Positions 1 to 27,732 of a stretch of 64,000 nucleotides of DNA are shown here, piece after piece (the stretch's first letter is position 1; each line of letters starts with the position of its first letter). The stretch is from assembly GCF_058153355.1 (NCBI RefSeq), contig NZ_CM177019.1; one strand, written 5' to 3'. The notes under the pieces were generated by a model. The model was not told where the DNA came from and made no database searches. It worked only from the letters and a program-made list of their open reading frames with translations. The translations under genes and the position numbers were made by a program.

Positions 1-424
1 GAATACCGATGGTATAAACGAACAGGATCAGGCCAAATTCCTGAATAACATGCAGCATATCGCTACTTAATGTCATCCCCGCCTGAGAAACAAAATGGCC
101 GACGATGATCCCACCAAACAGCACGCCGCCAATACCTAATCCTATGCCGCGAAATTTGACGTTGCCGATAAACAAACCGACGACTGCCACCAAAGCCAGA
201 ATACTGACCGTTAATGCTATATCACTCATCGTCCATTTCTCTTGAGATAACATTTTAATTGCTACGGATTATGGCTGAATCGGTGAAGCAGATTTGCCTT
301 ATAGCGCACATTATCACGGGAAAGAACGTGCCGAAATATCTTAAACAGGCGAAATTTAACGCTTTGTTGAGTAAGAAAGACAAAAAAAGCCCCACCAGAA
401 TGGTGGGGCAAAGAGAATAGCTAG

Positions 425-853
425 TTAGCTATTTAACGCGGGACGTTCGCTGATAGCGATACGCTGCGCTGCGATGGGTTCAGGCTCATTACGAATTAAA
501 TCAATATGCAGTAAACCGTTTACGAAGGTTGCACCAGAGACTTCCATATTTTCAGCCAGCGTAAAGCTCAGGCTAAATGGCTGATTCATAAGCCCTTGAT
601 GCAGCCATTTTTTCTCTTCTTTTGGCTGCTCCGGCGTGCCTTTTACGCTCAGGCGCGTACCTTCCAGTTGAATATCTAAATCTTCCTGACGAAAACCTGC
701 CAGCGCAAGGGTAATGCGGTAGTGGTTATCGTCGCTTTTCTCAATGTTGTACGGCGGGAAGCTCTGGCTTTCACCGGCGTTTTGCAGTGCGTTGGCCAGT
801 TTGTCAAAACCGATCCATTGACGCATCAGTGGGGATAAATCGAAGTTACGCAT
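425..853 (-). CDS. ibpB: small heat shock protein IbpB
   Basis: Track ORF 425..892; protein from [13 protein letters not shown] to the C-terminus matches IbpB (142 aa). Start trimmed to the ATG at 851-853. Confidence 0.9.
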
Positions 854-964
854 AGTCATTTCTCCTTCTAAGAAGCGAGTAAGTACCTGCAAATCCGAAG
901 ATTCGCATATGCTCCCTGACGGCGAGCATGGAGATATCAGGCCGCGCCAGGCGGCCTTAGGGAA

Positions 965-1378
965 TTAGTTGATTTCGATACGGCGCGGTTTTTTCGCTTC
1001 CGGAATCACACGTTCGAGATCGATATACAGCAAACCATTTACCAGGTTAGCACCACGAACATGAATGTTCTCAGCTAACTGGAATTTGCGTTCAAAGTTG
1101 CGTTCAGCGATGCCCTGGTACAGATAGGTGCGTTCTTTTTGTTCGTCGGCATGAGCACCTTTCACCACCAACAGATTATCCTGGGCGGTAATTTCCAGTT
1201 CGCTCTCAGCAAAACCAGCCACAGCGATAGCAATGCGGTAATGGTTTTCGTCTACCAGTTCAACGTTATACGGAGGGTAGCCGCCATTACTCTGGCTCTG
1301 GTTGTTTTCTAAGTGGTTAAACAAACGGTCAAATCCAATAGCAGAACGGTAAAGCGGGGATAAATCAAAGTTACGCAT
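965..1378 (-). CDS. ibpA: small heat shock protein IbpA
   Basis: 137 aa ORF, alpha-crystallin-type sHSP paralogous to the adjacent ibpB; length matches IbpA. Confidence 0.92.
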
Positions 1379-1480
1379 AATAAATAGCTCCTGAAATCAG
1401 CGAGAATGTAAGACCTTCCACAATGGACAGGTCAGGTAGCCAGAACACCCATCAGGCGCGTCCTCATCGGCTACGATGTA

Positions 1481-1509
1481 AAAATGGGTCTGGAAATGCA
1501 CTTTTCAAG
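1481..1509 (-). promoter_or_regulatory. sigma32 (heat shock) promoter upstream of ibpA
   Basis: Minus strand reads CTTGAAA, 14 nt spacer, CCCATTTT, matching the sigma32 -35/-10 consensus, about 100 nt upstream of the ibpA start. Confidence 0.55.
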
Positions 1510-1683
1510 CCTTATCAGCGGACTTTTTTTTGCAGTTTATGGTCTATTGCATAGACTGAGGGGGCAGCACGAAACGTTAAAGTGCGATAGCCGCCACAGT
1601 GCGACGTAATGATGATGTTATTTTCAGCAAGGGATCGCTATAACTCATCAGGCCAACACCCACGATCAACAGATGAATTTATT

Positions 1684-2016
1684 ATGATAAGAAATGTGTT
1701 GTTAGCGTTCATGATATGCAGCGGAATGACATTACTCGGAGGATGCTCCAGCGTGATGTCCCATACCGGGGGAAAAGAAGGAACGTATCCCGGCACCCGC
1801 GCCAGCGCCACCATGATTGGCGACGATGAAACCAACTGGGGCACTAAGTCGCTGGCGATTCTCGATATGCCGTTTACCGCTGTGATGGACACGCTTTTAC
1901 TGCCGTGGGATGTGTTCCGCAAAGACAGCTCGGTGCGCTCACGCGTTGAAAAAAGCGAAGCCAACGCGCAAGCCACCAATGCGGTTATTCCACCGGCCAG
2001 AATGCCTGATAACTGA
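1684..2016 (+). CDS. yidQ: small lipoprotein YidQ
   Basis: Internal ATG of track ORF 1609..2016 gives a 110 aa protein with a lipobox (LLGGC); position between ibpA and yidR as in K-12. Confidence 0.8.
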   Translation: MIRNVLLAFMICSGMTLLGGCSSVMSHTGGKEGTYPGTRASATMIGDDETNWGTKSLAILDMPFTAVMDTLLLPWDVFRKDSSVRSRVEKSEANAQATNAVIPPARMPDN

Positions 2017-2017
2017 T

Positions 2018-3268
2018 TTAGCGATCAGTTTCGGTGATCCACAGCTGGCCGCCTTCCATCCACGCTAGCCATCGACCATCCGGCGAGAAGACCACGGCGT
2101 CCGCAGAAGGGGGATTGGCGTGGTTTTCGGTTAAATACTCAACCTCGCCGCTTTGCGCATGGGCGCAAGCAATTCGATTATCCAGCACAAAGCCCAACCA
2201 TTCTCCTGACGGATGCCAGTTAAATGCAGACTGAATATCCGTTTTGTTATGGGTTAACTGGCGCGGCTCGCCGCCCTGTGGCGAGATAAGCCACAGTTGC
2301 ACAATGCCGTTATCATCACGCATTAAAAACGCGATTTGCGTACCCTGCGGATTACAGCGCACCCAGTGGCGCGGGACGTTGACTAACCCCGGATAAGCCC
2401 GATGGTGGGTAAAGGTTAAACGTCGCTGCACGACGCCACGCGGTGGCGCGGGCAGGGTTGTTTCCGTTCCACTTAACGGCGCATCACCTGCTGCTTTCCA
2501 GCCAGCTTCATCTTGCGGTAACTCAACGATGAACAGCTCCGGCACTTTCTCGCCCTTTGGCGAAAGTGTGTCGCCAATAAACGCCAGCGCGTGGTTTCCT
2601 ACCCATCCTTCTTCATAAGCACGATTAATTTCATCACTGCCAGGCTGCGGCGTGGGCGTTGTTTTACTTACCAGTACGCACCAGTGGCTACCGCTGTATT
2701 CACGCGGATGCTGCTTTTGTACGTTGACCGGGCCAAACGGTACCGCAACACTGACGTTGCGCAAATCCAGCGCCGGATCGCGTTCATGCATCACATGGTC
2801 GTTATAGGTAAAGCTCACCATTACACCGTTCGGGCTAAAGACATGTACATGGCTGCCGCCACGCAGCGCCCCTGGCGTATACGGCGCGGTAATATCCATT
2901 GCATCAAGGTTGCTCATCTTGCCGTCTTCAACAATCACGCCTCGACGGTGATGGAAATCGTAATGCCATGTTTCATCAGGATTTTCAGGTCCGTGGATAA
3001 AGACATATTTCTCTGACTTCGGATGAACGGTCACCACGCCGACGTGTGCGCCCTGTGACGCACGGTAGATAACCTCGACCTCACCGGTATGAATATTCAC
3101 ACGTTCAATAGTTTCGCCGGTAAACGACGCCCCAGAAGGACGCACGTCAAATACCAGCCACTGGCTGTCGGGCGTCCAGGTATTGGTATTAGTGAGCAGG
3201 TGATTACGGGGAGCAAAGGTTATCTGTTTCATGGCGTGGTCCTGATACAAAACGGTTTCCGCAATCAT
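2018..3268 (-). CDS. yidR: YidR, beta-propeller-like protein of unknown function
   Basis: 416 aa ORF in the conserved position. An internal ATG at 3232 has a better Shine-Dalgarno (AGGA) and may be the true start. Confidence 0.8.
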   Translation of the reverse strand: MIAETVLYQDHAMKQITFAPRNHLLTNTNTWTPDSQWLVFDVRPSGASFTGETIERVNIHTGEVEVIYRASQGAHVGVVTVHPKSEKYVFIHGPENPDETWHYDFHHRRGVIVEDGKMSNLDAMDITAPYTPGALRGGSHVHVFSPNGVMVSFTYNDHVMHERDPALDLRNVSVAVPFGPVNVQKQHPREYSGSHWCVLVSKTTPTPQPGSDEINRAYEEGWVGNHALAFIGDTLSPKGEKVPELFIVELPQDEAGWKAAGDAPLSGTETTLPAPPRGVVQRRLTFTHHRAYPGLVNVPRHWVRCNPQGTQIAFLMRDDNGIVQLWLISPQGGEPRQLTHNKTDIQSAFNWHPSGEWLGFVLDNRIACAHAQSGEVEYLTENHANPPSADAVVFSPDGRWLAWMEGGQLWITETDR

Positions 3269-3332
3269 ACTTCACAAGGACTTCACTTTCAGACAATAGT
3301 CTTTTGCCATCGTGATGAATGTGAGTGAAAAG

Positions 3333-4433
3333 ATGGAACATTTCGACGTGGCGATTATTGGCCTCGGCCCGGCAGGGTCGGCGTTGGCGCGAAAGTTAGC
3401 AGGCAAAATGCAGGTGATCGCGCTGGATAAAAAGCACCAGTGCGGTACTGAAGGTTTCAACAAGCCTTGCGGCGGTCTGCTGGCACCGGACGCTCAGCGA
3501 TCTTTTATTCGCGATGGACTGACGCTTCCTGTCGATGTGATCGCCAATCCGCAGATTTTCAGCGTCAAAACCGTCGACGTCGCCGCATCGCTTACACGTA
3601 ACTACCAGCGAAGCTATATCAATATTAATCGCCATGCTTTCGACTTATGGATGAAATCGCTGATCCCCGCCAGCGTTGAGGTTTACCACGATAGCCTGTG
3701 CCGGAAAATCTGGCGCGAGGATGATAAATGGCATGTCATTTTTCGCGCAGACGGCTGGGAGCAACACATTACCGCCCGCTATCTGGTCGGTGCCGATGGT
3801 GCAAACTCGATGGTGCGGCGACATCTCTACCCGGATCATCAGATTCGTAAATATGTTGCTATCCAGCAGTGGTTCGCAGAGAAACATCCGGTGCCGTTCT
3901 ACTCCTGCATCTTTGATAATGCGATAACTGACTGTTATTCATGGAGTATCAGCAAAGACGGTTATTTTATCTTTGGCGGTGCCTATCCAATGAAAGACGG
4001 CCAGGCGCGCTTCACGGCGCTAAAAGAGAAAATGAGCGCCTTTCAGTTCCAGTTTGGTAAGGCGGTAAAAAGCGAAAAATGCACGGTGCTGTTTCCCTCA
4101 CGCTGGCAGGATTTTGTCTGCGGTAAGGACAACGCCTTTCTGATTGGTGAAGCGGCGGGATTTATCAGCGCCAGCTCGCTGGAGGGGATTAGCTATGCGC
4201 TGGATAGTGCAGAGATTCTGCGTTCGCTGTTACTGAAGCAGCCGGAGAAGAGCAACGCCGCTTACTGGCGCGCCACCCGCAAACTGCGTTTAAAACTCTT
4301 CGGCAAAATAGTAAAAAGCCGATGCCTGACCGCACCGGCTTTAAGAAAATGGATTATGCGCAGTGGTGTGGCGCATATTCCACAGTTTAAAGATTATCCA
4401 ACGCGCTTCACATCGCCCACCAGCAGGATGTAA
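3333..4433 (+). CDS. cbrA: FAD-dependent oxidoreductase CbrA (YidS)
   Basis: N-terminal Rossmann motif [14 protein letters not shown]. Track ORF starts at 3312 (GTG); start is uncertain between 3312, 3315 and 3333. 3' end overlaps convergent dgoT. Confidence 0.8.
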
Positions 4434-5686
4434 GAGAGCGCGCCAATCAACGCGACGGCGGAGATATAAACCAGTGCAGGCGCGAAACCGTAACCCTGCG
4501 CCAGGTACCCCACCACCAGCGGAACGGTGATGCCGCCCAGACCACCGGCGAAGTTAAACACGCCGCCGGTTAAACCAATCAGCCGCATCGGTGCCAGAGA
4601 AGAGACTAACGACCAGGTAATCGAAGCAAAACCGTTGCCGAAGAATGCCAGCGCCATCAGGCACATAATCATCATCGGATCGTTGGTGTAGTTAGCACCC
4701 ATAATGCAGGTGGAGATCAGCAAACCGCAGATAATCGGCGTTTTACGCGCAAAGCCCAGTGAAAAGCCCTTACGTACCAGCAGATCCGCGACCCAGCCAG
4801 AGAGCAGGACGCCGACAAACGCCGCAAGGAAAGGCACCGTGGTCATAAAGCCCGCTTTCAACGCCGTGATGCCTTTTTCCTGGGTTAAATAGTTCGGGAA
4901 CCAGGTTAAGAAGAACCACAGTGTAGAAGCCACCGCAAATTGCCCAAGATAGACGCCGATCAGTTTACGATGGAACACCAGTTTCCAGTCTTTGGCTGTT
5001 AGCGGCTGACGCGACTCTTTTTTCACTGGCGCATCGCCATCCACCAGACCGCCGCCGTCACGAATGTAATCCAGTTCAGCTTTGCTAATGCCTTTGGTCA
5101 GGCGCGGCGGCTGATAAACCTTAAACCAAATCAGCGACCAGATAATGCCGATACCGCCGGTGACAATGAACACCCAGTGCCAGCTCAACATTTCCTGAAT
5201 CCAGATCAGCAGCGGAGTCAGAAACGCCAGACCGACAAACTGACCAGACGTATAAAAACCCACGGCAGAAGCGCGTTCATGTTCCGGGAACCAGCTGGTC
5301 ACCATCCGGTTATTGGTCGGGAACGCGGGCGCTTCGAAAATACCGGTTATCGCACGCAGACCAATTAATGACATTAAGCCCGTGGCAAAGCCCTGGAATA
5401 ACGTCGCCACTGACCAGCCAAATATCGCAATAAAATAAGTCACGCGAGAACCTACGCGATCTAAAAACCAACCGCCGGGGATCTGACATAAGGTATAAAG
5501 CCAGGCGAAGGCCGAAAATACATAGCCCATTTGCGCTTTGGTAATGCCGAACTCTTCCTGAATATGGGCGGAAGCCACGGCCAGGTTAGCGCGGTCAACA
5601 TAACAAATGACCACCGTAATAAAGATCATCACCAGCGTCAGATAACGCCGACGCCCCGGTTTTGCTGCATTAACGGGAATATCCAT
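4394..5686 (-). CDS. dgoT: D-galactonate:H+ symporter DgoT (MFS)
   Basis: 430 aa from [15 protein letters not shown] matches DgoT; track ORF is extended 15 codons upstream. Confidence 0.92.
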
Positions 5687-5805
5687 AGCGAGCTTTCTCC
5701 AGATTTTGGGCATAGCGAAGCCGCTCACCATGCCCTGTAATGTACAGAGGGTTATATTTTTGTATTGCTGTTTTAGTGCCCGATGAGGGGCTTACGTGGC
5801 AGGAA

Positions 5806-5956
5806 TTACCACTCTGCTACGCTGTTATCTTCATGACGCCAGAGCGGATTACGCCAGTCCGGGGCATTTTTACTGAACTCAATGACTTTGGCTTCGTCGA
5901 TTTCTACGCCTAAGCCCGGTTTCGTTAATGGTTTAAAGAAGCCGCCGACCATGCTG
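5806..5956 (-). pseudogene. dgoD: 3' fragment of dgoD (D-galactonate dehydratase), truncated by IS4
   Basis: Last ~49 codons ([27 protein letters not shown]...NSVAEW) match the DgoD C-terminus; reading frame runs directly into the IS4 end at 5957. Confidence 0.7.
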
Positions 5957-7382
5957 TAATGCCAGTCAGTTAAGCAACTGACTGGCTCTTTTTCGGGGCT
6001 GTGGGGTATTTCCAGGGCCTCTCCTTTACCACTCTCGGGAAGGCCCTTTCCCTTCTTGTCGGTAATTTCACAAGTTGTCCCATACTTGCAAGATCGCGCA
6101 TCAGCTCCGGTATACGTCCCGGTGAAGCGCCCTGCAATGTCATCAGCATTCTCATCACCATTCCGCATGATTCTGAGAAACTCAGTTGATTCGGCCAGTA
6201 ACCTTTCAGATGTTCCGCCATTTTAATCATCTGATATCTCACCAGATTATAAGCCAGTAAGACACCCCACAGCTCTTGCTCCACAAGCTCCGGCTTTTTA
6301 CTTCTCAGCGTCAGCCTGCTCAGTTGCATCGTCTGTTTTATCTCCCTGTATCCCAGTTCGATTTCCCAGCGATGACTGTACAGATCCGCCATTTCTCCTC
6401 CGGGGAAGCGCATGGCGTCCGTCATCGACGTCAGCAGATGGCAGACTTTTCCTTTGCGCGTCACGGTCAGCAGGCGGGCTGTCACTTCATTTCCCAGTCC
6501 CGGCCACTTTTTTCGTGCCTGCGGGCTGGTTTTCAGCTTCACCAGATGATCGCCTTTACCCAGTTTTCTGATCTCTTCATATTGCGCTCCCTTTCTGAGA
6601 GGTATCATCCAGTGGCGGTGTTCTCCCGCCAGGCTCCAGGCATTTAACAGTCCCAGTGAGTAATAACCTTTATCCATTAACGTCAGAGTGTTATCGCCGG
6701 TTTGTTCTATAAGTTGCTCAGCAAGCTCATTTTCGCTGTTCTTCATCGTGCCGAAGGCTGCAGCCGTCAGCAGATGGCTGGTCAGTTCCATCTGGCAGAC
6801 CATTTTGACCTGCGGGTAGAGCGCCGGGTTCCCGGCATGTGTCTGGCGGGGGAAGGCTGCATCGTTCTCTGGTGTATCCGGTGTGCGCCAGAACACACCA
6901 TCGATGGCCAGCAGGGTCAGGCCGCACCAGTGCGGATGCGGCGTGGCGTTATGCCAGAGCTGCGCTGTTTTCGTGAACACGCGGCGGACAGCCTCACTTC
7001 CCAGGCGCTGGCGGGCCTGAATAACGGCACTGGGGGCAACGAAGGGGCGATTGCCCGGCAGCATGATGTCCAGGCGATTCACAATCTGGTGAAGAGGTTC
7101 TTTACGCTCAAGCGCCATGCCAACAATACACCAGACCATCATTTCGAGGGGAAGACGGCGCTTGCGTAGCGTTACAGTACCTGATTCGGCAAGGCAACGA
7201 GAGATGAGTTCGGGGTCGAGGTAATCCCCCAGAGAAGTCAGTGGGTTACGCAGAGAATCGTAACGGGATACCAGATCAAGAGCCTGTCCAATGTGCATAA
7301 AAAAATCCGGAAACAAGTGAGCGTTTCCGGATTCTTACACAGCCACTGGATCGGTCAACTGATCCTTAACTGATCGGCATTA
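5957..7382 (-). mobile_element. IS4 insertion sequence, complete (1426 bp)
   Basis: Terminal inverted repeats TAATGCCAGTCAGTTAAG (5957-5974) and reverse complement of TAATGCCGATCAGTTAAG (7365-7382); single transposase ORF inside; length equals canonical IS4. Confidence 0.92.
5970..7298 (-). CDS. insG: IS4 transposase
   Basis: 442 aa from [20 protein letters not shown] matches the IS4 transposase (DDE family); track ORF 5970..7316 has 6 extra N-terminal codons. Confidence 0.88.
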
Positions 7383-7490
7383 GGCCAAATCGGTCCCGTT
7401 TTTTTTCGCCTTTATTTCGGAGAAGTGTCCAGAGGGGCAAGGGGATTCGGGGGAGTATAATTTCGCCATTCAGAAAGAATGGAAAGAATA

Positions 7491-8017
7491 ATGCAAAACA
7501 GAAAATGGATTTTGACCTCGCTGATAATGACTTTTTTCGGCATCCCCATACTGGCGCAATTACCAACTGGCGCACGGTTGGCGGTAACGATCAGGAGATC
7601 CAGACCTGGCAACGCCCGGAAGACTCTGGCAGCCAGACAGTGATGCAATCGCAGGTCATGAAAAATGTCCGCATGATCTCGCCGCAGGAAACCGAAGTGG
7701 CAAGCATGATGGAGGGAATGATTAAAGTTGTTGCCGAATACCGTAATACAAACAACTCAATAGGCTACACCTTCCGCTATTACGCAACACAAATGAACGC
7801 CGATAAAAATATAAAACTGCTAGCTATTAACGGTATTGCACCGACTGCGGAAAATATTCGTAACGGCAAATATCCGTATATCGTCGATGCCTTTATGGTA
7901 ACGCGGGAAAATACTACGTCAGAAACACAAAAACTGGTCGAATGGTTTTTAACGCCGCAGGGGCAGAGTCTGGTGGAAGATGTGGGCTATGTGCCGCTGT
8001 ATCCAACAATGAAATAA
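7491..8017 (+). pseudogene. yzgL: yzgL-like internally deleted PstS-like binding-protein gene
   Basis: ATG at 7491 encodes a signal-peptide-like start (MQNRKWILTSLIMTFFGIPILA) that runs out of frame after ~50 codons. Frame +2 (track ORF 7505..8017) encodes only the C-terminal half of a protein paralogous to the downstream 330 aa lipoprotein. Confidence 0.6.
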
Positions 8018-8042
8018 CGCTCGAGAGAAAGGAATCAGCGCA

Positions 8043-9035
8043 ATGAATAAATTCACCGGTGTTTTACTATTAGGTACGGCGTTACTGGCGGGATGTGTCG
8101 ACCGGGAAGGGTACTATAACAGCGTCAGGGAAGAAGAGAGTCATGGACTGACGTCTCTGCGGGGGCAACCTGAATTACGTTACAGCGATGATTGGTCAAG
8201 ATGGCCGAGAGTGTACGGCGCTACAGCCTTATACCCGCTGTATGCCTCCGCGTATTATGAATTAGTACCCGAGCCAAAAGATAAGGATCGAACCTCGCTG
8301 GCCTGGCAGGCGTATGGTTTGCAACAAACCCGAACAGCTGAAGCCTACGATAGTCTGATCAAGGGTACCGCGACGGTTATTTTTGTTGCACAACCGTCGG
8401 AAGGACAGAAAAAACGTGCAGAAGAAGCAGGCGTTAAACTGAAATATACCGCGTTTGCCCGCGAAGCCTTTGTCTTTATCGTTGATATCAAAAACCCGGT
8501 TAATTCACTTAGCGAACAGCAAGTCAAAGACATTTTTAGCGGTAAAGTGAGTCGCTGGAATAAAGTGGGCGGCGGTGACGAAAGTATAAAAGTCTGGCAG
8601 CGGCCAGAAGATTCTGGAAGCCAAACGGTTATGAAGGGACTGGTTATGCAAGATACTCCAATGCTGCCAGCCAAAAAATCCACTGTTATCGATCTTATGG
8701 GCGGTTTAATTACCGAAGTCGCCGACTACCAAAACACACCATCTTCCATTGGATACACCTTCCACTATTACGTCACACGTATGAATGACAATATGCTCAA
8801 AATGCGCAAACAGATCAAACTGCTGGCTATAAATGGCGTTGCACCTACAGAGGAAAATATCCGTAACGGCACTTATCCGTACATAATTGATGCTTATATG
8901 GTGACGCACGAAAACCCTACGCTGGAAACGCAGAAATTCGTCGACTGGTTTTTAAGCCCGCAGGGACAGCAATTGGTAGAGGATGTGGGGTATGTGCCGA
9001 TTCATGACGCATCATACGAATCATCAGTGCAATAA
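8043..9035 (+). CDS. putative lipoprotein with PstS/phosphate-binding-protein-like domain
   Basis: 330 aa ORF with Shine-Dalgarno AAGGA, lipobox LLAGC, and C-terminal half about 60% identical by eye to the upstream pseudogene. Family assignment is by motif impression only. Confidence 0.7.
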   Translation: MNKFTGVLLLGTALLAGCVDREGYYNSVREEESHGLTSLRGQPELRYSDDWSRWPRVYGATALYPLYASAYYELVPEPKDKDRTSLAWQAYGLQQTRTAEAYDSLIKGTATVIFVAQPSEGQKKRAEEAGVKLKYTAFAREAFVFIVDIKNPVNSLSEQQVKDIFSGKVSRWNKVGGGDESIKVWQRPEDSGSQTVMKGLVMQDTPMLPAKKSTVIDLMGGLITEVADYQNTPSSIGYTFHYYVTRMNDNMLKMRKQIKLLAINGVAPTEENIRNGTYPYIIDAYMVTHENPTLETQKFVDWFLSPQGQQLVEDVGYVPIHDASYESSVQ

Positions 9036-9637
9036 TGATGAATAAAATCAGACTTTATATTCCTCCGTTAATTCTTGGTTTTGTTATTGTGCCGTTGTTG
9101 GTGTGGCCGACGGTGGTTGCGCTGGCTGCTTCTGTTATCACGCTGAGTTTTCTGGGAGAGATACTGTTCTCTATCCCGCTCATGATCAGGCATATTTCGC
9201 TTCTGCAATTACAACTATGGTTATCGGCTGAATATGCGCTTTTCTGCTGTGCAATGGTGGGCGTTGGTTGGCAATTTGCTCGTATAACTCAATCCGAATC
9301 GAAAAGCAGACTGCATTGTTGGCTGGTATTTGCACCAGTTTATTTCTGGTTGCTCCTGTGGAATATCATTTTCTATGTCGCGCCAGCGAATATTGCGTTG
9401 CTGGAGAATATGCGCAGTTTCTTTCTGACAGTTGTCTGGCTCCCACTGAATTTTTCGCCATTTTGGTCTCAACCGTGGATTGACTTTGTCGGTCCAATAA
9501 GCGCACAGCTTGGTTTTGCGTTGGGATATTATTGCCAGTGGCGTAGCAAAAATAGAAGCCAGATACGGAAGTGGAGTGAGTGGGGAACGTGCCTGAGTTT
9601 TGTTACGTTGGGTATGATGGCGTGGGCTTTGCGGTAA
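9035..9637 (+). CDS. polytopic inner-membrane protein of unknown function
   Basis: 200 aa ORF whose start overlaps the upstream stop (TAATG), implying translational coupling; several hydrophobic segments rich in W/F/L. Confidence 0.6.
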   Translation: MMNKIRLYIPPLILGFVIVPLLVWPTVVALAASVITLSFLGEILFSIPLMIRHISLLQLQLWLSAEYALFCCAMVGVGWQFARITQSESKSRLHCWLVFAPVYFWLLLWNIIFYVAPANIALLENMRSFFLTVVWLPLNFSPFWSQPWIDFVGPISAQLGFALGYYCQWRSKNRSQIRKWSEWGTCLSFVTLGMMAWALR

Positions 9638-9689
9638 TTCCCTGACTTAAAAAGTAGGTCAGATTGTTGACAAAGTGCGCTTTGTTCAT

Positions 9690-9798
9690 GCCGGATGCGA
9701 CATGAACGTCTTATTGGCCTACAAGACCATGCAAATTCAATATATTGCATAAGCCACGTAGGCCTGATAAGCGTAGCGCATCAGGCAGTTTTTTGTTT
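9690..9798. repeat. REP / BIME-like palindromic units
   Basis: gccggatgcgacatgaacgtcttattggcctac and gtaggcctgataagcgtagcgcatcaggcag resemble the E. coli REP consensus, located 3' of glpD. Confidence 0.5.
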
Positions 9799-9849
9799 AT
9801 CATCAGTCGCAGGTCAGATTGAAATCTGACCCGGCCACCTTACGTTAAT

Positions 9850-11355
9850 TTACGACGCCAGCGACAACCTCTGCTGCGTATACTCCCCCAGCCACTGACT
9901 CACACGGGATTGTTGCTGCGCATTCAGCCACATGCCTTGTTTTGTGCGACGCCACAGGGCATCGTCGGCGCGGCGGACCCATTCGTGATCCACAAGGTAT
10001 TTCAGCTCCGCTTCGTAGAACTCATGACCGAAATCTTCCCCGAGATCGCCTATCGCCCCCGCATTGCCGAGCAGCAGCTCGCTGTTGCTGCCGTAAGTGC
10101 GCGCGTAGTGACGTGCCAGCGATTCAGTCAGGAACGGATAACGGCGGCGCAAGCGAGCGGCATAATCGTCGCGGTCGCCCTCGATGGCACCACCCGGCAG
10201 CACGCTCTCTTTCGTCCACGCCGGGCCAATGCCCTGATAATACGGCGTCAGTTTTTCCAGCGCGTGCTCCGCCAGTTTGCGGTAGGTGGTCAGCTTACCG
10301 CCGAATACCGATAACAGCGGAGCTTTGCCGTTTTCATCATGGATATCGAGCGTGTAATCACGGGTAATGGCCTGCGGCGAATCGGACTCATCATCACACA
10401 GTGGACGCACGCCGGAGTAGGTCCAGACGATATCATCCCGGCTTAGCGGCTTTTTAAAGTGCGCGTTATACACTTTCAGCAGGTAATTGATTTCACTCTC
10501 TTCAATCTTCACCGCTTTCGGATCGCCTTTATACTCCACATCGGTGGTGCCGATAATGGAAAACTCGTCCATCCACGGGATCACGAAGACAATACGTTTA
10601 TCTTCGTTTTGCAGAATGTAGGCTTGCTTCTGGGTATGCACACGCGGCACGACAATATGGCTGCCTTTGATCAGGCGAATGCCATAAGGTGAGGGTAGAT
10701 GCATACCGTCGTCGAAGAACTGCTTCACCCACGGGCCGGTGGCGTTCACGAGGCCGCGCGCTTGCCAGCTATATTTTTTGCCGGTATCGATATCTTCCGC
10801 TTCCACAATCCACAGGCCGTTTTCGCGGCGAGCAGAAGTGGCACGAGTACGGGTAAGCACTTCACCGCCTTTACGCACCACCATCTGGGCGTTGGCGAGT
10901 ACCAGACGGGCGTCGTCTACCCAACAGTCGGAATATTCGAATCCGCGCTTAATTTCCGGTTTTAACACTGAATTTGCGCCAAAACGCAAACCGGTTGATC
11001 CCGGCAGGCTGGTGCGTTTACCCAGATGATCGTACATAAACAGACCAATACGGATCATCCACGCCGGACGCAGACGCGGGCGATGCGGCAGGCGAAAACG
11101 CATCGGGAAAGCGATATGGGGAGCCATTTTCAGCAACACTTCACGTTCAGCCAGCGCCTCGCTGACCAGGCGGAATTCATAGTGCTCAAGGTAGCGCAGG
11201 CCACCATGAATGAGTTTTGAACTGGCGGAAGAGGTCGCACAAGCGAGATCCTGCGCCTCCAGCATCAGCACGGATAAACCGCGTCCAGCGGCGTCTGCCG
11301 CGATACCAGCACCATTGATGCCGCCACCTATCACAATCAGATCTTTGGTTTCCAT
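9850..11355 (-). CDS. glpD: aerobic glycerol-3-phosphate dehydrogenase
   Basis: 501 aa from METKDLIVIGGGINGAGIAADAAGRG (FAD-binding motif); track ORF is extended 5 codons. Confidence 0.94.
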   Translation of the reverse strand: METKDLIVIGGGINGAGIAADAAGRGLSVLMLEAQDLACATSSASSKLIHGGLRYLEHYEFRLVSEALAEREVLLKMAPHIAFPMRFRLPHRPRLRPAWMIRIGLFMYDHLGKRTSLPGSTGLRFGANSVLKPEIKRGFEYSDCWVDDARLVLANAQMVVRKGGEVLTRTRATSARRENGLWIVEAEDIDTGKKYSWQARGLVNATGPWVKQFFDDGMHLPSPYGIRLIKGSHIVVPRVHTQKQAYILQNEDKRIVFVIPWMDEFSIIGTTDVEYKGDPKAVKIEESEINYLLKVYNAHFKKPLSRDDIVWTYSGVRPLCDDESDSPQAITRDYTLDIHDENGKAPLLSVFGGKLTTYRKLAEHALEKLTPYYQGIGPAWTKESVLPGGAIEGDRDDYAARLRRRYPFLTESLARHYARTYGSNSELLLGNAGAIGDLGEDFGHEFYEAELKYLVDHEWVRRADDALWRRTKQGMWLNAQQQSRVSQWLGEYTQQRLSLAS

Positions 11356-11388
11356 GCTGCCCTCATTCACTTTCGTTAAAGCTCATAA

Positions 11389-11406
11389 ATGTTCGTTATC
11401 GAACAT
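11389..11406. promoter_or_regulatory. GlpR operator (perfect palindrome) in the glpD/glpEGR control region
   Basis: ATGTTCGTTATCGAACAT is a perfect inverted repeat matching GlpR half-sites, 34-51 bp upstream of the glpD start. Confidence 0.55.
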
Positions 11407-11466
11407 ATTAGCAAAGAATCGCGCTTTGGGTAACATTGAAAAAACATTTTAGAGTGATATGTATAA

Positions 11467-11871
<405 letters not shown>

Positions 11872-11903
11872 CGCTTTATACTGTCCCCTTTTGTGTGGAA
11901 TAA

Positions 11904-12746
<843 letters not shown>

Positions 12747-12762
12747 TTCCAGGGATTTATAA

Positions 12763-13521
12763 ATGAAACAAACACAACGTCACAACGGTATTATTGAACT
12801 GGTTAAACAGCAGGGTTATGTCAGCACCGAAGAACTGGTGGAACACTTCTCCGTCAGTCCGCAGACTATTCGTCGTGACCTCAACGAGCTGGCGGAGCAA
12901 AACCTGATCCTGCGTCACCATGGCGGCGCGGCACTGCCTTCCAGTTCGGTTAACACGCCGTGGCACGATCGTAAGGCCACCCAGACCGAAGAAAAAGAGC
13001 GTATTGCCCGCAAAGTGGCGGAGCAAATTCCTAACGGCTCGACGCTATTTATTGATATCGGCACCACGCCGGAAGCGGTGGCGCACGCGCTGCTTAATCA
13101 CAGCAATTTGCGCATTGTGACCAACAATCTCAACGTCGCTAACACGCTGATGGTAAAAGAAGATTTTCGCATCATTCTTGCAGGTGGCGAATTACGCAGC
13201 CGCGATGGTGGGATCATTGGCGAAGCGACGCTCGATTTTATCTCCCAGTTCCGCCTTGATTTCGGGATTCTGGGGATCAGCGGCATCGATAGCGACGGCT
13301 CGCTGCTGGAGTTCGATTACCACGAAGTTCGCACCAAACGCGCTATTATTGAGAACTCGCGCCACGTTATGCTGGTTGTCGATCACTCGAAATTTGGCCG
13401 TAATGCGATGGTCAATATGGGCAGCATCAGCATGGTCGATGCCGTCTACACCGACGCCCCGCCACCAGCGAGCGTGATGCAGGTGCTGACAGACCATCAT
13501 ATTCAGCTGGAGCTGTGCTGA
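12763..13521 (+). CDS. glpR: glycerol-3-phosphate regulon repressor GlpR (DeoR family)
   Basis: 252 aa; N-terminal helix-turn-helix; conserved position after glpG. Confidence 0.93.
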   Translation: MKQTQRHNGIIELVKQQGYVSTEELVEHFSVSPQTIRRDLNELAEQNLILRHHGGAALPSSSVNTPWHDRKATQTEEKERIARKVAEQIPNGSTLFIDIGTTPEAVAHALLNHSNLRIVTNNLNVANTLMVKEDFRIILAGGELRSRDGGIIGEATLDFISQFRLDFGILGISGIDSDGSLLEFDYHEVRTKRAIIENSRHVMLVVDHSKFGRNAMVNMGSISMVDAVYTDAPPPASVMQVLTDHHIQLELC

Positions 13522-15101
13522 TCCTGCACGGCTTCCCACGTCAGACCAAAACGCGCCAGGTATTTGCGTAGCCGATCCGCGTCGTTGACGCTGGCTTTGC
13601 CCTGGCGCGAAACATCAAAGAGTTCACGCCCGGCAGCGGAAAGCGATTTTGCCTGACGGCAGATAGCGATAACGTGTTCCAGTTGCAGCCGATCAAAGAG
13701 GTCGATGTTTTCCGCTTCAGTGCCCAGTAGCTGCTTAAGCGCAGAAGAGCGGCTATCCTGCCAGTTGTAGCGTAGACGGTTTATCTCATCTTCTACGGTT
13801 TCAAGGGTGATACGCCCACTATCGGCAAACGTCGCCATGCGTGTGACGCTGGCAGAAAGTTCGCGAAAGTTACCGCGCCATGCTGCCTGAGATGATGTCG
13901 CAAAGGCCAGCCAGGCGCGCCTCGCTTCGGTGTTAAAACGCACGCTGTCGCCGGTAAGTGAGGCGTGGCGCTCCACTTCATAATCCAGGTTCGGTTCAAT
14001 ATCTTCCTGGCGCTGGCGTAGACCCGGCAGGGTGAAGGTCCAGAGATTGATCCGCGCGTACAGGTCTTCGCGAAATTTGCCTTCGGCAACCAGCTGACGC
14101 AAATCGCGCACCGTTCCGGCGATCAGCTGAAAATCACTGCTCACCAGGCGATCGCTACCAAACGGGTAAAAGGTTTTCTCTTCAATGGCTTTTAGCAACA
14201 TTGCCTGTTCGTCTGCGCCCAGTTCGCCAATCTCATCAAGAAACAACATGCCGCCGTTGGCGCTGCGTAATAACCCTTCACGAGATTCCCGCGCCCCGGT
14301 AAACGCGCCTTTCACATGACCAAACAGCGCGGACATGGCGGTATCGCCACGCAGAGTGGCGCAGTTCACTTCCACAAACGCGCCGCTAAACTGATGCCGC
14401 GCCTGTTTTAACTCGAAGATGCGTCGTGCCAGAAACGACTTTCCCGCACCGGTTGGGCCGTTGAGCAGGATCGGTGCGCGGGATCTAATCGCCACTTTTT
14501 CGATCTGCTCAATCATGCGGTTGAAGTGGGCGTTACGCGTGGCAATGCCGGATTTGAGGAAATCGAGGGTTTGCTGGCGTTCTTCGGCAAAGCGGCTGGC
14601 AATAGCGTTATAACGGCTTAAATCGAGATCGATAATCGTCACCGCACCAGGGCTGTTGGGCTGTTCTTTTTTACGCGGTGGCGAAGATTGTATTAACCTG
14701 GCGGGCAGGTAACGTGCTTCCGCCAGCAGAAACCAGCAAATCTGCGCGACGTGGGTACCGGTGGTGATGTGAATTAAATAGTCTTCTTTATCAGGTTGGA
14801 ATGCGTAACCACGGGCAAAATCATGCAGGCAGGCGTAAACCTCCTCGAAATCCCATGGGTTATGCAGTTCAATCTCAACGCCCACCACTTCTGTTTCTGG
14901 CGAAACATTGGCGATATCGCGTTTAAGCGTTTCAAACAGCGAGCGTGAGCGGACGTCGTGCAACAATTCCAGTCGATCGATGACTAACGATTCTTGCTGG
15001 CATAGACAGAGTGACGGACGCCATTTCGACCATCGCTGACTGCCGCGCCCGGCATAATCCAGTACGGTGCCGACAAAGCCAAAAGCCACTGTTTTACGCA
15101 T
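13503..15101 (-). CDS. rtcR: sigma54-dependent transcriptional activator RtcR
   Basis: 532 aa; AAA+ sigma54-interaction domain (GPTGAGKS Walker A, GAFTGA motif); divergent from rtcBA; 3' end overlaps glpR by 19 bp. Confidence 0.9.
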   Translation of the reverse strand: MRKTVAFGFVGTVLDYAGRGSQRWSKWRPSLCLCQQESLVIDRLELLHDVRSRSLFETLKRDIANVSPETEVVGVEIELHNPWDFEEVYACLHDFARGYAFQPDKEDYLIHITTGTHVAQICWFLLAEARYLPARLIQSSPPRKKEQPNSPGAVTIIDLDLSRYNAIASRFAEERQQTLDFLKSGIATRNAHFNRMIEQIEKVAIRSRAPILLNGPTGAGKSFLARRIFELKQARHQFSGAFVEVNCATLRGDTAMSALFGHVKGAFTGARESREGLLRSANGGMLFLDEIGELGADEQAMLLKAIEEKTFYPFGSDRLVSSDFQLIAGTVRDLRQLVAEGKFREDLYARINLWTFTLPGLRQRQEDIEPNLDYEVERHASLTGDSVRFNTEARRAWLAFATSSQAAWRGNFRELSASVTRMATFADSGRITLETVEDEINRLRYNWQDSRSSALKQLLGTEAENIDLFDRLQLEHVIAICRQAKSLSAAGRELFDVSRQGKASVNDADRLRKYLARFGLTWEAVQDQHSSS

Positions 15102-15235
15102 CTTAGATATCCTTATAAAAGACGATATTTCATTATCGGCGAATTGGCTTTGCGGGAAATCTCCGTTTACGGACGTACAGATTTTATCTATTTAAAAACA
15201 ATGAATTAAAAAATTAAGCTGCTTATTTAATTTTC

Positions 15236-15251
15236 TGGCACGACGGTTGCA
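15236..15251 (+). promoter_or_regulatory. sigma54 promoter of rtcBA
   Basis: TGGCAC-N5-TTGCA, a perfect -24/-12 sigma54 element, ~40 bp upstream of the rtcB start. Confidence 0.7.
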
Positions 15252-15289
15252 ATTATCTGGACAGCAAACAACGAAAAGAGAAAAACAAA

Positions 15290-16507
15290 ATGAATTACGA
15301 ATTACTGACCACTGAAAATGTCCCGGTAAAAATGTGGACCAAAGGCGTACCGGTAGAAGACGATGCGCGTCAGCAACTGATAAATACGGCGAAGATGCCG
15401 TTTATTTTCAAACATATTGCGGTAATGCCTGATGTACATCTGGGTAAAGGTTCCACCATTGGTAGCGTGATCCCGACCAAAGGGGCGATTATTCCGGCGG
15501 CGGTGGGGGTAGATATCGGTTGTGGAATGAACGCACTGCGAACTGCGTTAACGGCGGCTGACCTGCCTGAAAACCTGGCGGAGTTGCGTCAGGCGATTGA
15601 AGCTGCCGTGCCGCACGGACGTTCCAATAATCGTAGCCGTCGTGATAAAGGCGCATGGGAGAATCCGCCTGTTAACGTCGATGCGAAATGGGCTGAGCTT
15701 GAAGCCGGTTATCAGTGGTTAACGCAAAAATATCCGCGTTTCCTTAATACCAATAACTATAAACACCTGGGAACGGGAAACCACTTTATTGAAATCTGTC
15801 TTGATGAGTCGGACCAGGTGTGGATTATGCTGCACTCCGGTTCACGCGGAATCGGTAATGCCATCGGGACTTACTTTATCGATCTGGCGCAAAAAGAGAT
15901 GCAGGAAACGCTTGAAACGTTGCCATCGCGTGACCTGGCGTACTTTATGGAAGGTACGGAATATTTTGACGATTACCTGAAAGCGGTGGCCTGGGCGCAG
16001 CTTTTTGCCAGCCTTAACCGCGATGCGATGATGGAAAATGTGGTAACGGCGTTGCAGAGCGTTACGCAGAAAACGGTAAGACAGCCACAAACGCTGGCGA
16101 TGGAAGAGATCAACTGTCACCACAACTATGTGCAAAAAGAACAGCACTTTGGCGAAGAGATCTATGTGACGCGTAAAGGCGCGGTGTCTGCGCGTGCTGG
16201 TCAATATGGAATTATTCCCGGTTCGATGGGGGCGAAAAGCTTTATTGTCCGTGGGCTGGGAAATGAAGAGTCGTTCTGTTCGTGCAGCCACGGTGCCGGG
16301 CGGGTAATGAGCCGTACTAAAGCGAAAAAACTGTTCAGCGTGGAAGATCAAATTCGTGCTACCGCGCATGTGGAATGCCGTAAAGATGCCGAAGTGATCG
16401 ACGAAATCCCGATGGCGTATAAAGATATCGACGCGGTGATGGCGGCACAAAGCGATCTGGTGGAAGTAATCTACACCCTGCGTCAGGTGGTGTGTGTAAA
16501 AGGATAA
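15290..16507 (+). CDS. rtcB: RNA-splicing ligase RtcB
   Basis: 405 aa; conserved Asp75/Cys78 (DIGCG) and GNHF motif. Three residues shorter than my recollection of the K-12 protein (see findings). Confidence 0.9.
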   Translation: MNYELLTTENVPVKMWTKGVPVEDDARQQLINTAKMPFIFKHIAVMPDVHLGKGSTIGSVIPTKGAIIPAAVGVDIGCGMNALRTALTAADLPENLAELRQAIEAAVPHGRSNNRSRRDKGAWENPPVNVDAKWAELEAGYQWLTQKYPRFLNTNNYKHLGTGNHFIEICLDESDQVWIMLHSGSRGIGNAIGTYFIDLAQKEMQETLETLPSRDLAYFMEGTEYFDDYLKAVAWAQLFASLNRDAMMENVVTALQSVTQKTVRQPQTLAMEEINCHHNYVQKEQHFGEEIYVTRKGAVSARAGQYGIIPGSMGAKSFIVRGLGNEESFCSCSHGAGRVMSRTKAKKLFSVEDQIRATAHVECRKDAEVIDEIPMAYKDIDAVMAAQSDLVEVIYTLRQVVCVKG

Positions 16508-17527
<1,020 letters not shown>

Positions 17528-17569
17528 TGCAGAGATGTAAGCCGGATCTGGCGCGTTAACCGGCTAAAC

Positions 17570-20281
<2,712 letters not shown>

Positions 20282-20794
20282 TCACTTCACTGTGGAAAAT
20301 GAGGAAATATTATTTTTTTTGCGCTTCGTAATTAATGGTTATAAGGTCGGCCAGAAACCCTTCTAATGCAAGCGATGACGTTTTTTTATGTGTCTGAATT
20401 TGCACTGTGTCACAATTCCAAATGTTTATTAACAACTCACCTAATAACGACGCTGATGCAGCGTGAATACTGGGTTTTACGGTATTTTCCTCATGTTCAT
20501 CAGTTTCATTTAAGCAAGGGAGTCTTCTCAATTCCTGATGAAAGAGCCATCTAAAAAGAGGATCTTAATAAACCTATTAAGAATGAGATGGAGCAAACTG
20601 GATGTTTTACTTATGAAACTGTTTCACTCCTTTACTTAATTTATAGAGTTACCTTCCGCCTTTTGAAAATACACAACGGCCATTTTTTGCACTTAGATAC
20701 AGATTTTCTGCGCTGTATGGCATTGATTTGCTGCTAATCCTGTGGATTGCACTAGGTTTAAGTGGTCGAGATCACATTTCCTTACTCATCCCCG

Positions 20795-23292
<2,498 letters not shown>

Positions 23293-23301
23293 GGAAGCTC
23301 G

Positions 23302-25386
23302 ATGGAAAGCAAACGTCTGGATAATGCCGCGCTGGCGGCGGGGATCAGCCCCAATTACATCAATGCCCACGGTAAACCGCAGTCGATTAGCGCCGAAACC
23401 AAACGGCGTTTGCTTGACGCGATGCATCAACGTACCGCCACGAAAGTGGCGGTAACGCCAGTCCCGAATGTCATGGTCTATACCAGCGGCAAAAAAATGC
23501 CGATGGCGGTGGAGGGCAGCGGCGAGTATAGCTGGCTGCTGACCACCGAAGAAGGAACGCAGTACAAAGGCCATGTAACGGGGGGCAAAGCGTTCAATTT
23601 ACCGACGAAGTTGCCGGAAGGTTATCACACGTTGACACTCACCCAGGACGACCAGCGCGCGCATTGTCGGGTGATTGTCGCCCCGAAACGCTGTTACGAA
23701 CCGCAGGCGTTGCTGAATAAACAAAAGCTGTGGGGCGCCTGCGTCCAGCTTTATACGCTGCGATCGGAAAAAAACTGGGGTATTGGGGATTTTGGCGATC
23801 TCAAAGTGATGCTGGTGGATGTGGCAAAACGTGGCGGGGCTTTCATCGGTCTGAACCCGATTCATGCGCTCTATCCGGCAAATCCAGAAAGTGCCAGCCC
23901 GTATAGCCCGTCTTCTCGTCGCTGGCTAAATGTGGTTTATATCGACGTTAACGCCGTCGAAGATTTCCATCTTAGCGAAGAGGCTCAGGCCTGGTGGCAG
24001 TTACCGACCACGCAACAGACGCTGCAACAGGCGCGGGATGCCGACTGGGTCGATTACTCCACCGTCACTGCGCTGAAAATGACAGCATTGCGGCTAGCGT
24101 GGAAAGGTTTTGCGCAACGTGATGATGAGCAGATGGCCGCGTTTCGCCAGTTTGTTGCAGAGCAGGGCGACAGCCTGTTCTGGCAGGCGGCGTTTGACGC
24201 GTTACATGCCCAGCAAGTGAAAGAAGACGAAATGCGCTGGGGCTGGCCTGCATGGCCAGAGATGTATCAGAACGTGGATTCACCAGAAGTGCGTCAGTTC
24301 TGCGAAGAACATCGTGATGACGTCGATTTTTATCTCTGGTTGCAGTGGCTGGCTTACAGCCAGTTTGCCGCCTGCTGGGAGATAAGCCAGGGCCATGAAA
24401 TGCCGATTGGCTTGTACCGTGATCTGGCGGTTGGCGTAGCGGAAGGTGGGGCGGAAACCTGGTGCGACCGTGAACTGTATTGCCTGAAAGCGTCGGTGGG
24501 CGCACCGCCGGATATCCTTGGCCCGCTGGGGCAGAACTGGGGATTGCCGCCGATGGATCCGCATATCATCACCGCGCGTGCCTATGAACCGTTTATCGAG
24601 CTGTTGCGTGCCAATATGCAAAACTGCGGCGCGTTGCGAATTGACCATGTGATGTCGATGCTGCGTTTGTGGTGGATACCGTATGGCGAGACGGCAGATC
24701 AGGGCGCGTATGTTCACTATCCGGTAGATGATCTGCTCTCGATTTTGGCACTCGAAAGTAAGCGCCATCGCTGCATGGTGATTGGTGAAGACCTCGGCAC
24801 TGTACCGGTAGAGATTGTCGGCAAGCTGCGCAGCAGCGGTGTGTACTCCTACAAAGTGCTCTATTTCGAAAGCGACCACGAGAAGACGTTCCGTGCACCG
24901 AAAGCGTATCCGGAGCAGTCGATGGCGGTTGCGGCGACACACGACCTGCCTACACTGCGTGGCTACTGGGAGAGCGGGGATTTAACGCTCGGCAAAACGC
25001 TGGGGCTGTACCCGGATGAAGACGTGCTGCAAGGTTTGTATGAAGATCGCGAACTGGCGAAGCAAGGGCTGCTGGATGCGCTGCATAAATATGGCTGTCT
25101 GCCAAAACGTGCCGGGCATAAGGCATCGTTGATGTCGATGACGCCGACGCTGAATCGTGGTTTGCAACGTTATATCGCTGACAGCAACAGCGCCCTGTTA
25201 GGGCTACAGCCAGAAGACTGGCTGGATATGGCGGACCCGGTGAATATCCCCGGCACCAGTTACCAGTATAAAAACTGGCGACGTAAGCTTTCTGCAACGC
25301 TTGAGACGATGTTTGCCGATGATGGCGTGAACAAGTTGATTAAGGATCTGGACAAGCGGCGCAGGGCGGTAGGGAAGAAGAAATAG
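23302..25386 (+). CDS. malQ: 4-alpha-glucanotransferase (amylomaltase)
   Basis: 694 aa; immediately downstream of malP. Confidence 0.95.
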   Translation: MESKRLDNAALAAGISPNYINAHGKPQSISAETKRRLLDAMHQRTATKVAVTPVPNVMVYTSGKKMPMAVEGSGEYSWLLTTEEGTQYKGHVTGGKAFNLPTKLPEGYHTLTLTQDDQRAHCRVIVAPKRCYEPQALLNKQKLWGACVQLYTLRSEKNWGIGDFGDLKVMLVDVAKRGGAFIGLNPIHALYPANPESASPYSPSSRRWLNVVYIDVNAVEDFHLSEEAQAWWQLPTTQQTLQQARDADWVDYSTVTALKMTALRLAWKGFAQRDDEQMAAFRQFVAEQGDSLFWQAAFDALHAQQVKEDEMRWGWPAWPEMYQNVDSPEVRQFCEEHRDDVDFYLWLQWLAYSQFAACWEISQGHEMPIGLYRDLAVGVAEGGAETWCDRELYCLKASVGAPPDILGPLGQNWGLPPMDPHIITARAYEPFIELLRANMQNCGALRIDHVMSMLRLWWIPYGETADQGAYVHYPVDDLLSILALESKRHRCMVIGEDLGTVPVEIVGKLRSSGVYSYKVLYFESDHEKTFRAPKAYPEQSMAVAATHDLPTLRGYWESGDLTLGKTLGLYPDEDVLQGLYEDRELAKQGLLDALHKYGCLPKRAGHKASLMSMTPTLNRGLQRYIADSNSALLGLQPEDWLDMADPVNIPGTSYQYKNWRRKLSATLETMFADDGVNKLIKDLDKRRRAVGKKK

Positions 25387-25398
25387 AGTGCGATTGAT

Positions 25399-25419
25399 GC
25401 CGGATGCGATGCATCCGGC
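25399..25419. terminator. intergenic hairpin between convergent malQ and gntT
   Basis: gccggatgc-gat-gcatccggc perfect stem-loop; no clear U-tract, so terminator function is uncertain. Confidence 0.35.
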
Positions 25420-25430
25420 AGTCAGTGTTA

Positions 25431-26747: not shown

Positions 26748-26895
26748 GATTTACCTGGCCTTTCATTTGTTATGGGTAACGTCAATTTTCTGACGACAAA
26801 CTCTAATTATCCCAATCGGGAACAGAGATATTGCGGCACCACGACTGATACCCACTAAAACTAATTATTGTAGTCAGATGTCAGGAGTATGTTTG

Positions 26896-26923
26896 GTACC
26901 CGCGTGAATGATACGGGTAACAT
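26896..26923 (-). promoter_or_regulatory. putative GntR operator upstream of gntT
   Basis: Minus strand reads ATGTTACCCGTATCATTCACGCGGGTAC, containing a TGTTACCCGTA half-site; recalled from the gluconate regulon, not verified. Confidence 0.4.
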
Positions 26924-27042
26924 CTGGCGTTTGAGAATCACCAGAGCGGGGTAAATTTAAATTATGAGAGGTTGGTCATATTATCGCGGGGAAACGTAGG
27001 GACTGGATTTGCCGAGGCAATGTAGCGCCAACGCCTGGCAGA

Positions 27043-27077
27043 CGGCCCGATAAGACGCTTTAGCGTCGCATCGGGCA
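27043..27077. repeat. REP-like palindromic unit
   Basis: ccgataagacgctttagcgtcgcatcggg inverted repeat between nfuA and gntT. Confidence 0.4.
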
Positions 27078-27098
27078 ATCTATAAAAGAGAGGATAAC

Positions 27099-27674: not shown

Positions 27675-27732
27675 AGTAATGGCCTAATAGTTGACTATTT
27701 TAGTTGGTTATAATACGCCCATCATCGAGGCT

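Follow-up and report, generated by a model that had tools for sequence, protein, structure and literature searches.

Inversions that arise by homologous recombination of inverted IS copies have been described in Shigella genomes and in long-term evolved E. coli lines. IS4 is usually a low-copy IS in E. coli. Elements of the IS4 subgroup are 1400-1650 bp long, have -AATR- termini and imperfect terminal inverted repeats, and generate direct repeats of 10-13 bp (PMC2266710). For the dgo operon (dgoRKADT), the characterised promoter is located upstream of dgoR, with DgoR as repressor and CRP as activator (PMC6003448, PMC11705089, PMC12288454). A dgoT::MudK fusion in Salmonella is constitutive, i.e. 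derepressed, upon deletion of dgoR, and dgoD of Salmonella Typhimurium LT2 carries a -1 frameshift, for which the operon is written as 'dgoRKAT' (PMC3573128).

We describe here a dgo locus in which a copy of IS4 stands between the 3' end of dgoD and sequences that belong downstream of glgP. The DNA analysed is a single stretch of 64 kb, referred to as the window. The IS4 copy is probably a recombinant one that marks one boundary of an inverted chromosomal segment of about 0.3 Mb. The locus shares with the IS-IS inversions of Shigella and of evolved E. coli an IS at the breakpoint, distant flanks of opposite orientation, the lack of a target duplication and perhaps a discontinuity in GC skew. 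It differs from them in that a single breakpoint is in view, in that the element is IS4, and in that the 64 kb contain only this one IS, unlike an IS-rich genome of the Shigella type.

IS4 and the truncated dgo operon

Coordinates of all features are listed in Table 1.

Table 1. Features at and around the IS4 junction, in window coordinates.
Feature	Position	Strand	Description
dgoT, D-galactonate:H+ symporter gene	4394..5686	minus	430 aa + stop, intact
Native dgoD-dgoT spacer	5687..5805	minus	119 bp; inside gap-free 97.1% K-12 alignment
dgoD 3' stub	5806..5956	minus	last 151 nt of 1149 nt
IS4, complete	5957..7382	minus	1426 bp
Hairpin in IS4 left end	5961..5986	+	11-pair stem, then TCTTTTTCGG (terminator-like scan, + strand only)
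IS4 transposase gene	5970..7298	minus (same direction as dgoT)	intact 442-aa ORF
Promoter-like site in IS4 right end	7331..7358	minus	TTGACC-16-AAGAAT with TG; consensus match only
glgP terminator, right half	7383..7406	+	GGCCAAATCGGT CCCG TTTTTTTT
First PstS-family (PBP_like_2) gene remnant	7479..8017	+	frameshifted, 979-bp internal deletion (alignment to reference L002; Pfam)
PstS-like gene 2	8043..9035		
200-aa ORF	9035..9637		
glpD	9850..	minus	

The element corresponds to IS4 of E. coli (K-12 insG type) in its length of 1426 bp, its TAATGCC... repeats, and its one 442-aa transposase with both characteristic domains. It differs from it in lacking the direct repeat of 10-13 bp typical of a fresh insertion and in having flanks that come from separate loci. 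The terminal inverted repeats read TAATGCCAGTCAGTTAAG (5957..5974) and TAATGCCGATCAGTTAAG (reverse complement of 7365..7382). Size and termini, the latter beginning with TAATGCC..., are those of the IS4 subgroup, and the transposase is encoded by a single DDE ORF, in which Nterm_IS4 (E=3e-33) and DDE_Tnp_1 (E=9e-32) domains are recognised by Pfam. DNA identity is 99.4% with the copy of strain NCTC10444 and 99.86% with that of GCA_900448625.1, and 2 residues distinguish the transposase from the one annotated for the IS4 of NCTC10444. This is the only IS4 copy in the 64-kb window, and also the sole IS found there. A Shigella origin of the DNA was considered and rejected, on the grounds of the single IS in 64 kb and of closest matches that are E. 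coli strains with 99.2-99.6% identity.

What remains of dgoD on the left side of IS4 amounts to 49 codons (334-382), preceded by a single base of codon 333 and followed by the stop codon, and its translation is the exact C-terminus of DgoD. The alignment with K-12 dgoD stops at position 8001 of the reference segment, in which the gene occupies 7851..8999. The protein is thereby broken at residue 333/334, within the MR_MLE_C barrel domain (residues 134-355; Pfam). The dgoT product is identical to K-12 DgoT in 428 of 430 residues, with no gaps, and carries a full MFS_1 domain (E=6e-66, Pfam). The ribosome-binding region of dgoT is kept within the spacer that separates it from dgoD. A 445-aa ORF version of dgoT differs only in the use of an upstream in-frame ATG.

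Among the members of dgoRKADT, the transporter gene dgoT is thus present and intact, while dgoD is left with 151 of its 1149 nt. The genes dgoR, dgoK and dgoA, together with the DgoR/CRP-controlled promoter, are not contiguous upstream of the dgoD stub and dgoT, and BLAST searches with K-12 queries gave no match to dgoD 5', dgoA, dgoK or dgoR within the 64-kb window. The sequence-only reading had described an intact dgoT and a dgoD cut to a 3' stub beside IS4, and this description proved accurate, coordinates included: dgoT aligns with its K-12 counterpart without gaps and retains the MFS_1 domain, and the 151-nt stub adjoins the element directly. The same reading placed the splitting of the dehydratase gene at this locus. 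The gene is indeed broken here, but the far flank of IS4 is composed of the glgP terminator, PstS-like sequences and glpD, and not of dgoD.

Origin and orientation of the two flanks

Positions 1..5956 of the window correspond to MG1655 3,866,045..3,872,000 in ascending order, gap-free and with 97.1% identity (BLAST), and include ibpB-ibpA-yidQ-yidR-cbrA-dgoT-dgoD'. The K-12 alignment of this left arm ends exactly where IS4 begins. From 7383 to 64000, the window tracks K-12 downward from 3,564,112. In K-12, the two flanks of the element are therefore 308 kb apart and in opposite orientation relative to the window, i.e. they represent distant loci oppositely oriented, as in IS-IS inversions. These matches are not due to chance because they are thousands of bases long at identities of at least 97%.

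The six closest complete genomes have the dgo locus and the PstS-like locus in K-12-like relative orientation, matching the window on opposite strands, at distances of 331-346 kb and with identities of 99.2-99.6% at the dgoT-dgoD flank and 97.9-99.6% at the PstS-like flank. Since all six share the K-12-like arrangement, that of the window is derived. Judged from the order of the aligned segments, the ascending-then-descending pattern is what an inversion is expected to leave as its signature, and not a deletion. The 3' end of dgoD comes from inside the interval between the two sites, and the PstS-like/glpD side, to which it is now attached, from outside; one inversion gives such a join whereas one deletion cannot. 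Over 1..6000, on the left side of IS4, GC skew takes values of -0.01 to -0.03, and over 6000..64000 it is mostly positive, reaching +0.09; the left arm measures only 6 kb. The switch fits a recent inversion within one replichore, but with so short a left arm it is weak evidence.

The right flank, from 7383 on, starts with GGCCAAATCGGTCCCGTTTTTTTT and contains the right half of the glgP terminator. The corresponding empty site in strain R32_14_1F reads AACGGGGCCAAATCGGTCCCGTTTTTTTT and is located 22 bp past the glgP stop codon. In NCTC10444, an IS4 occupies the identical position in the glgP terminator, and its orientation towards the PstS-like gene is that seen in the window. The segment 7383..7406 is consequently a half target site belonging to an IS4 insertion downstream of glgP. 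Beyond it, the glgP-glpD intergenic block begins with the remnant of the first PstS-like gene, and further to the right the window continues through glpE, glpG, glpR, rtc, malT and malPQ on to trpS and yhfZ.

The 979-bp deletion in the PstS-like remnant is bounded by two copies of TGGCGCAATT, and none of the 30 best complete-genome matches carries it. A 2.3-kb Logan contig (SRR8656992) contains the same junction between the IS4 end and the PstS-like block, with 28 bp of the IS4 end, as well as the 979-bp deletion. Because this short-read assembly reproduces both junction and deletion exactly, the strain or a close relative of it has been sequenced independently.

Comparison of the sequences flanking IS4 in the window did not disclose a target duplication of 10-13 bp. 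The left flank ends with GCCGACCATGCTG and the right one starts with GGCCAAATCGGTC, and only 5 of 13 bases match. Two IS4 copies used as controls are flanked by duplications, one of 12 bp (GGCCACAAGGTC) in NCTC10444, where the element sits in the loop of the glgP terminator, and one of 13 bp (CACCTGGCTGGTG) around the copy in yidP of GCA_900448625.1. The missing duplication reflects rearrangement after insertion and is not an argument against the identity of the element as IS4. Each flank of the window IS4 is a half target site of a different insertion.

A putative target consensus of IS4 is 'AAA-N20-TTT'. The half target sites are found in an AAA...TTT context, as in other IS4 insertions, a descriptive observation on three sites.

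These data bear on the simplest accounts of the locus, which are implied by the sequence-only reading and according to which IS4 inserted into dgoD at its native position or mediated a deletion of dgoD5'-dgoAKR. A dgoD stub that ends precisely at the IS4 terminus is what both would give. The right flank, however, is the glgP terminator, and the target duplication is absent; moreover, a single deletion would fuse the PstS-like side to dgoD5' rather than to dgoD3', and no one deletion can produce the orientation seen here from either a K-12-like or a closest-relative backbone, so that a backbone rearranged beforehand would be required. Simple insertion is refuted by the identity of the flank, its orientation and the missing duplication, and these accounts taken together are in our estimate very improbable.

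Proposed inversion and competing explanations

The arrangement is best described by a history of three steps. An ancestral IS4 would first have resided in the loop of the glgP terminator, a site that at least one further E. coli lineage also has occupied by IS4. A second IS4, in opposite orientation, would then have landed between nt 998 and 999 of dgoD, inactivating the dehydratase. Finally, as the topology suggests, homologous recombination between the two inverted copies would have flipped the interval between them. The junction in the window would thus be composed of dgoT-dgoD3' / IS4 / glgP-terminator-right-half-PstS-like-glpD, and the predicted reciprocal junction of glgP / IS4 / dgoD5'-dgoA-dgoK-dgoR, with the operon promoter included. 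The sequence predicted for the latter is ...AATAGAACGG GGCCAAATCGG(T) / TAATGCCAGTC...IS4...GATCGGCATTA / (C)CGACCATGCTG AAGTCTTCTTTATTTTTCAC...

This recombination model is supported by the orientation of IS4 with respect to the PstS-like gene, which matches that of the un-rearranged copy in NCTC10444, as the model requires. Against it counts the fact that natural E. coli seldom show inversions of 0.3 Mb confined to a single replichore. The far-off flank in opposite orientation and the absence of a target duplication lead us to expect the remaining dgo operon at the distant reciprocal junction, neither adjacent to the stub nor necessarily lost.

A junction-spanning BLAST found the dgoD/IS4 junction in none of 5,426 complete E. 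coli genomes. For the predicted partner junction, an exact pattern composed of the IS4 right end, a duplication of 11-13 bp and dgoD 5' was scanned. It had no match in GTDB representative genomes, where the window's own junction is equally absent, so that this result is uninformative, and none in JGI metagenome contigs, in which the exact-pattern scan was run for the partner only. Exact-protein look-ups returned no record for the three truncated DgoD products predicted with duplications of 11, 12 and 13 bp, nor for a 120-aa chimeric ORF that spans the junction. The stub ORF of 48 aa, by contrast, is recorded for hundreds of assemblies, and at the places inspected it derives from frameshifted or IS1-disrupted dgoD and not from the junction seen in the window.

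The same structure could have been produced during assembly, if two simple insertions, dgoD::IS4 and glgP-terminator::IS4, had their flanks mis-joined through the 1.4-kb repeat. Both half-junctions would then look as they do here. Only the half that links the right end of IS4 to the PstS-like block is confirmed outside the window, over just 28 bp of IS4, and the joined structure occurs in none of the complete genomes. On the other hand, the element sits within 64 contiguous kb, which suggests an assembly that spans repeats, and a mis-join would also need two inverted IS4 copies, which are the very substrate for a real inversion. We consider such an artefact unlikely. If it nevertheless occurred, the disruption of dgoD would stand but the inversion would not, and just beyond IS4 one would find dgoA, dgoK and dgoR.

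A further route leads to the inversion in one step, by intramolecular replicative transposition in which the IS4 of the glgP terminator attacks dgoD on the same chromosome, duplicating itself and inverting the interval without passing through a dgoD::IS4 intermediate. Topology and distribution of half target sites would be identical to those observed, and it agrees with this route that a simple dgoD::IS4 at the site of the window was found in 0 of 5,426 complete genomes. IS10 and IS50, however, move by conservative cut-and-paste. The same mode is given, as a general statement, for transposition in the IS4 family (PMC2266710), and it yields no replicative inversion from a single copy. The one-step route is accordingly judged improbable, and recombination between two inverted IS4 copies remains the preferred reading.

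Possible expression of dgoT and predicted loss of D-galactonate use

The claim that dgoT is severed from its native promoter is borne out, as the gene is no longer contiguous with dgoR, upstream of which the sole characterised dgo promoter lies (PMC6003448). With the proposed inversion, the distance between dgoT and the DgoR/CRP-controlled promoter would be about 0.3 Mb.

Consensus and terminator-like scans revealed neither a promoter-like nor a terminator-like site on the minus strand of the dgoD-dgoT spacer (5687..5805). The consensus scan likewise disclosed no outward hybrid promoter where IS4 meets dgoD. Over the 1.7 kb of upstream sequence scanned for dgoT, the minus strand has a single promoter-like site, that in the right end of IS4 (7358..7331), and it precedes the start of the transposase gene. 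The hairpin at the opposite end of the element has its T-run on the + strand, directed into IS4, while the minus side toward dgoT has ATTACAGCATGG and no T-run. From the transposase stop (5970) to the start of dgoT, no terminator-like site was found by the scan on the minus strand.

The IS4 transposase gene accordingly appears to be the only visible upstream source of transcription on the dgoT strand. Any expression of dgoT would be weak and constitutive, by read-through from IS4, which is possible because the transposase gene is co-directional and no terminator-like site intervenes. A more far-reaching reading holds that the inversion is real and that read-through from the transposase promoter keeps dgoT, as the gene of an orphan sugar-acid transporter, functional, constitutively expressed and independent of DgoR, so that IS4 would have rewired the gene and not merely stranded it. 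We give little credence to this combination. The sequence-only reading had also proposed an outward promoter of IS4 as a compensation for the damage. Such a promoter could at most restore expression of dgoT; it cannot mend dgoD, and growth would not be rescued.

Because the break in DgoD lies within the catalytic barrel domain, the strain is predicted, reasonably in our view, to be unable to dehydrate D-galactonate to 2-dehydro-3-deoxy-galactonate, and hence to grow on D-galactonate. Complete E. coli genomes that carry dgoD 5' have it at a median of one place per genome, which makes the prior for a second copy of dgoD low.

Loss of dgoD is not unusual, since among 5,426 complete E. coli genomes 406 (about 7%) lack the 5' part of the gene. 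In GCA_900448625.1, dgoD is interrupted by IS1 at a distance of ~35 bp from the IS4 break in the window. The locus resembles this dgoD::IS1, the frameshift of Salmonella LT2 and the dgoD-less E. coli in that the dehydratase is lost and the other dgo genes are kept. In those natural defects, however, the operon is contiguous and dgoT remains under the dgoR-proximal promoter, whereas here dgoT has been moved away.

The event represents ordinary insertion-sequence damage, most likely accompanied by an inversion; it adds a further case to a well-known kind and does not constitute a new system. For annotation, dgoD-negative and D-galactonate-negative are the appropriate scores for this strain, and its dgo operon is better described as divided between two IS4 copies than as 'dgoD truncated, rest missing'. 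Where a gene stub is found beside an IS, a missing target duplication should be checked for before a simple insertion is called. Use of D-galactonate has been linked to gut colonisation, as the mouse gut selects for loss of dgoR (summary in PMC12288454). Given the link to colonisation, loss of the pathway is a small ecological marker.

Disruption and absence of dgoD

In E. coli assembly GCA_900448625.1, dgoD is interrupted by an IS1 whose site lies only ~35 bp from the IS4 break in the window (the IS1, like the features described below, is listed in the table). It is a simple insertion, and the remaining operon is contiguous. An IS4 is present at this locus as well, within yidP.

A megablast search through 5,426 complete E. 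coli genomes did not detect the 5' part of dgoD in 406 of them. In a few genomes the same search returned up to five match places for this part, and five match places were located on plasmids.

At the IS4/dgoD junction of the window, a mechanically predicted ORF of 120 aa overlaps the 3' end of the transposase in a different frame. A look-up of its product found no gene on record.

Features in the window and in the GCA_900448625.1 locus (L008)
Feature	Position	Strand	Remarks
Predicted 120-aa ORF (mechanical)	5806..6168	minus	begins within IS4, ends as last 49 dgoD codons in frame
IS4 left-end hairpin, strong, followed by T-run	5961..5986	+	
First PstS-family (PBP_like_2) gene, glgP-glpD interval	7479..8017		deletion junction 7552..7561
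2.6-kb insertion, envZ-pck interval	38797..41453		low GC, ~0.47
IS1 in dgoD, GCA_900448625.1	L008 9187..9954		at dgoD nt 958-966, 9-bp overlap

Other differences in the window

The first PstS-family gene between glgP and glpD has lost 979 bp internally, with a frameshift, and the deletion is bounded by two copies of TGGCGCAATT. This deletion is absent from all 30 of the best E. coli matches. A Logan contig of the independent short-read set SRR8656992 carries the identical allele. In K-12, the same block shows a larger deletion, which leaves the yzgL remnant.

K-12 also differs in being without the insertion between envZ and pck. This segment encodes a 428-aa protein of the SUKH-1/SMI1_KNR4 type, a domain frequent among immunity proteins of toxin systems, and two further ORFs (176 and 208 aa) for which no Pfam match was found.

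IS4 in the glgP terminator

IS4 occupies the identical position in the hairpin loop of the glgP terminator in the window (right junction at 7383) and in NCTC10444, where the locus (L006) is un-rearranged (element at 4001..5426). Flanking sequences of the two are only ~92% identical, and the loop sequence at the insertion site differs (GGCCAAATCGGT versus GGCCACAAGGTC in the window/NCTC10444 comparison). Because of these two differences, sequence comparison suggests that the loop is a hot spot for IS4, struck independently in the lineage of the window and in NCTC10444. An A-run 5' and a T-run 3' of the duplication accompany both intact IS4 target sites examined (n = 2), as well as the empty dgoD site.

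Judged from its sequence, the hairpin at the left end of IS4, together with its T-run, is oriented so as to stop transcription into the element. In NCTC10444, where the glgP site is un-rearranged, it would stand in for the glgP terminator that was split by the insertion.
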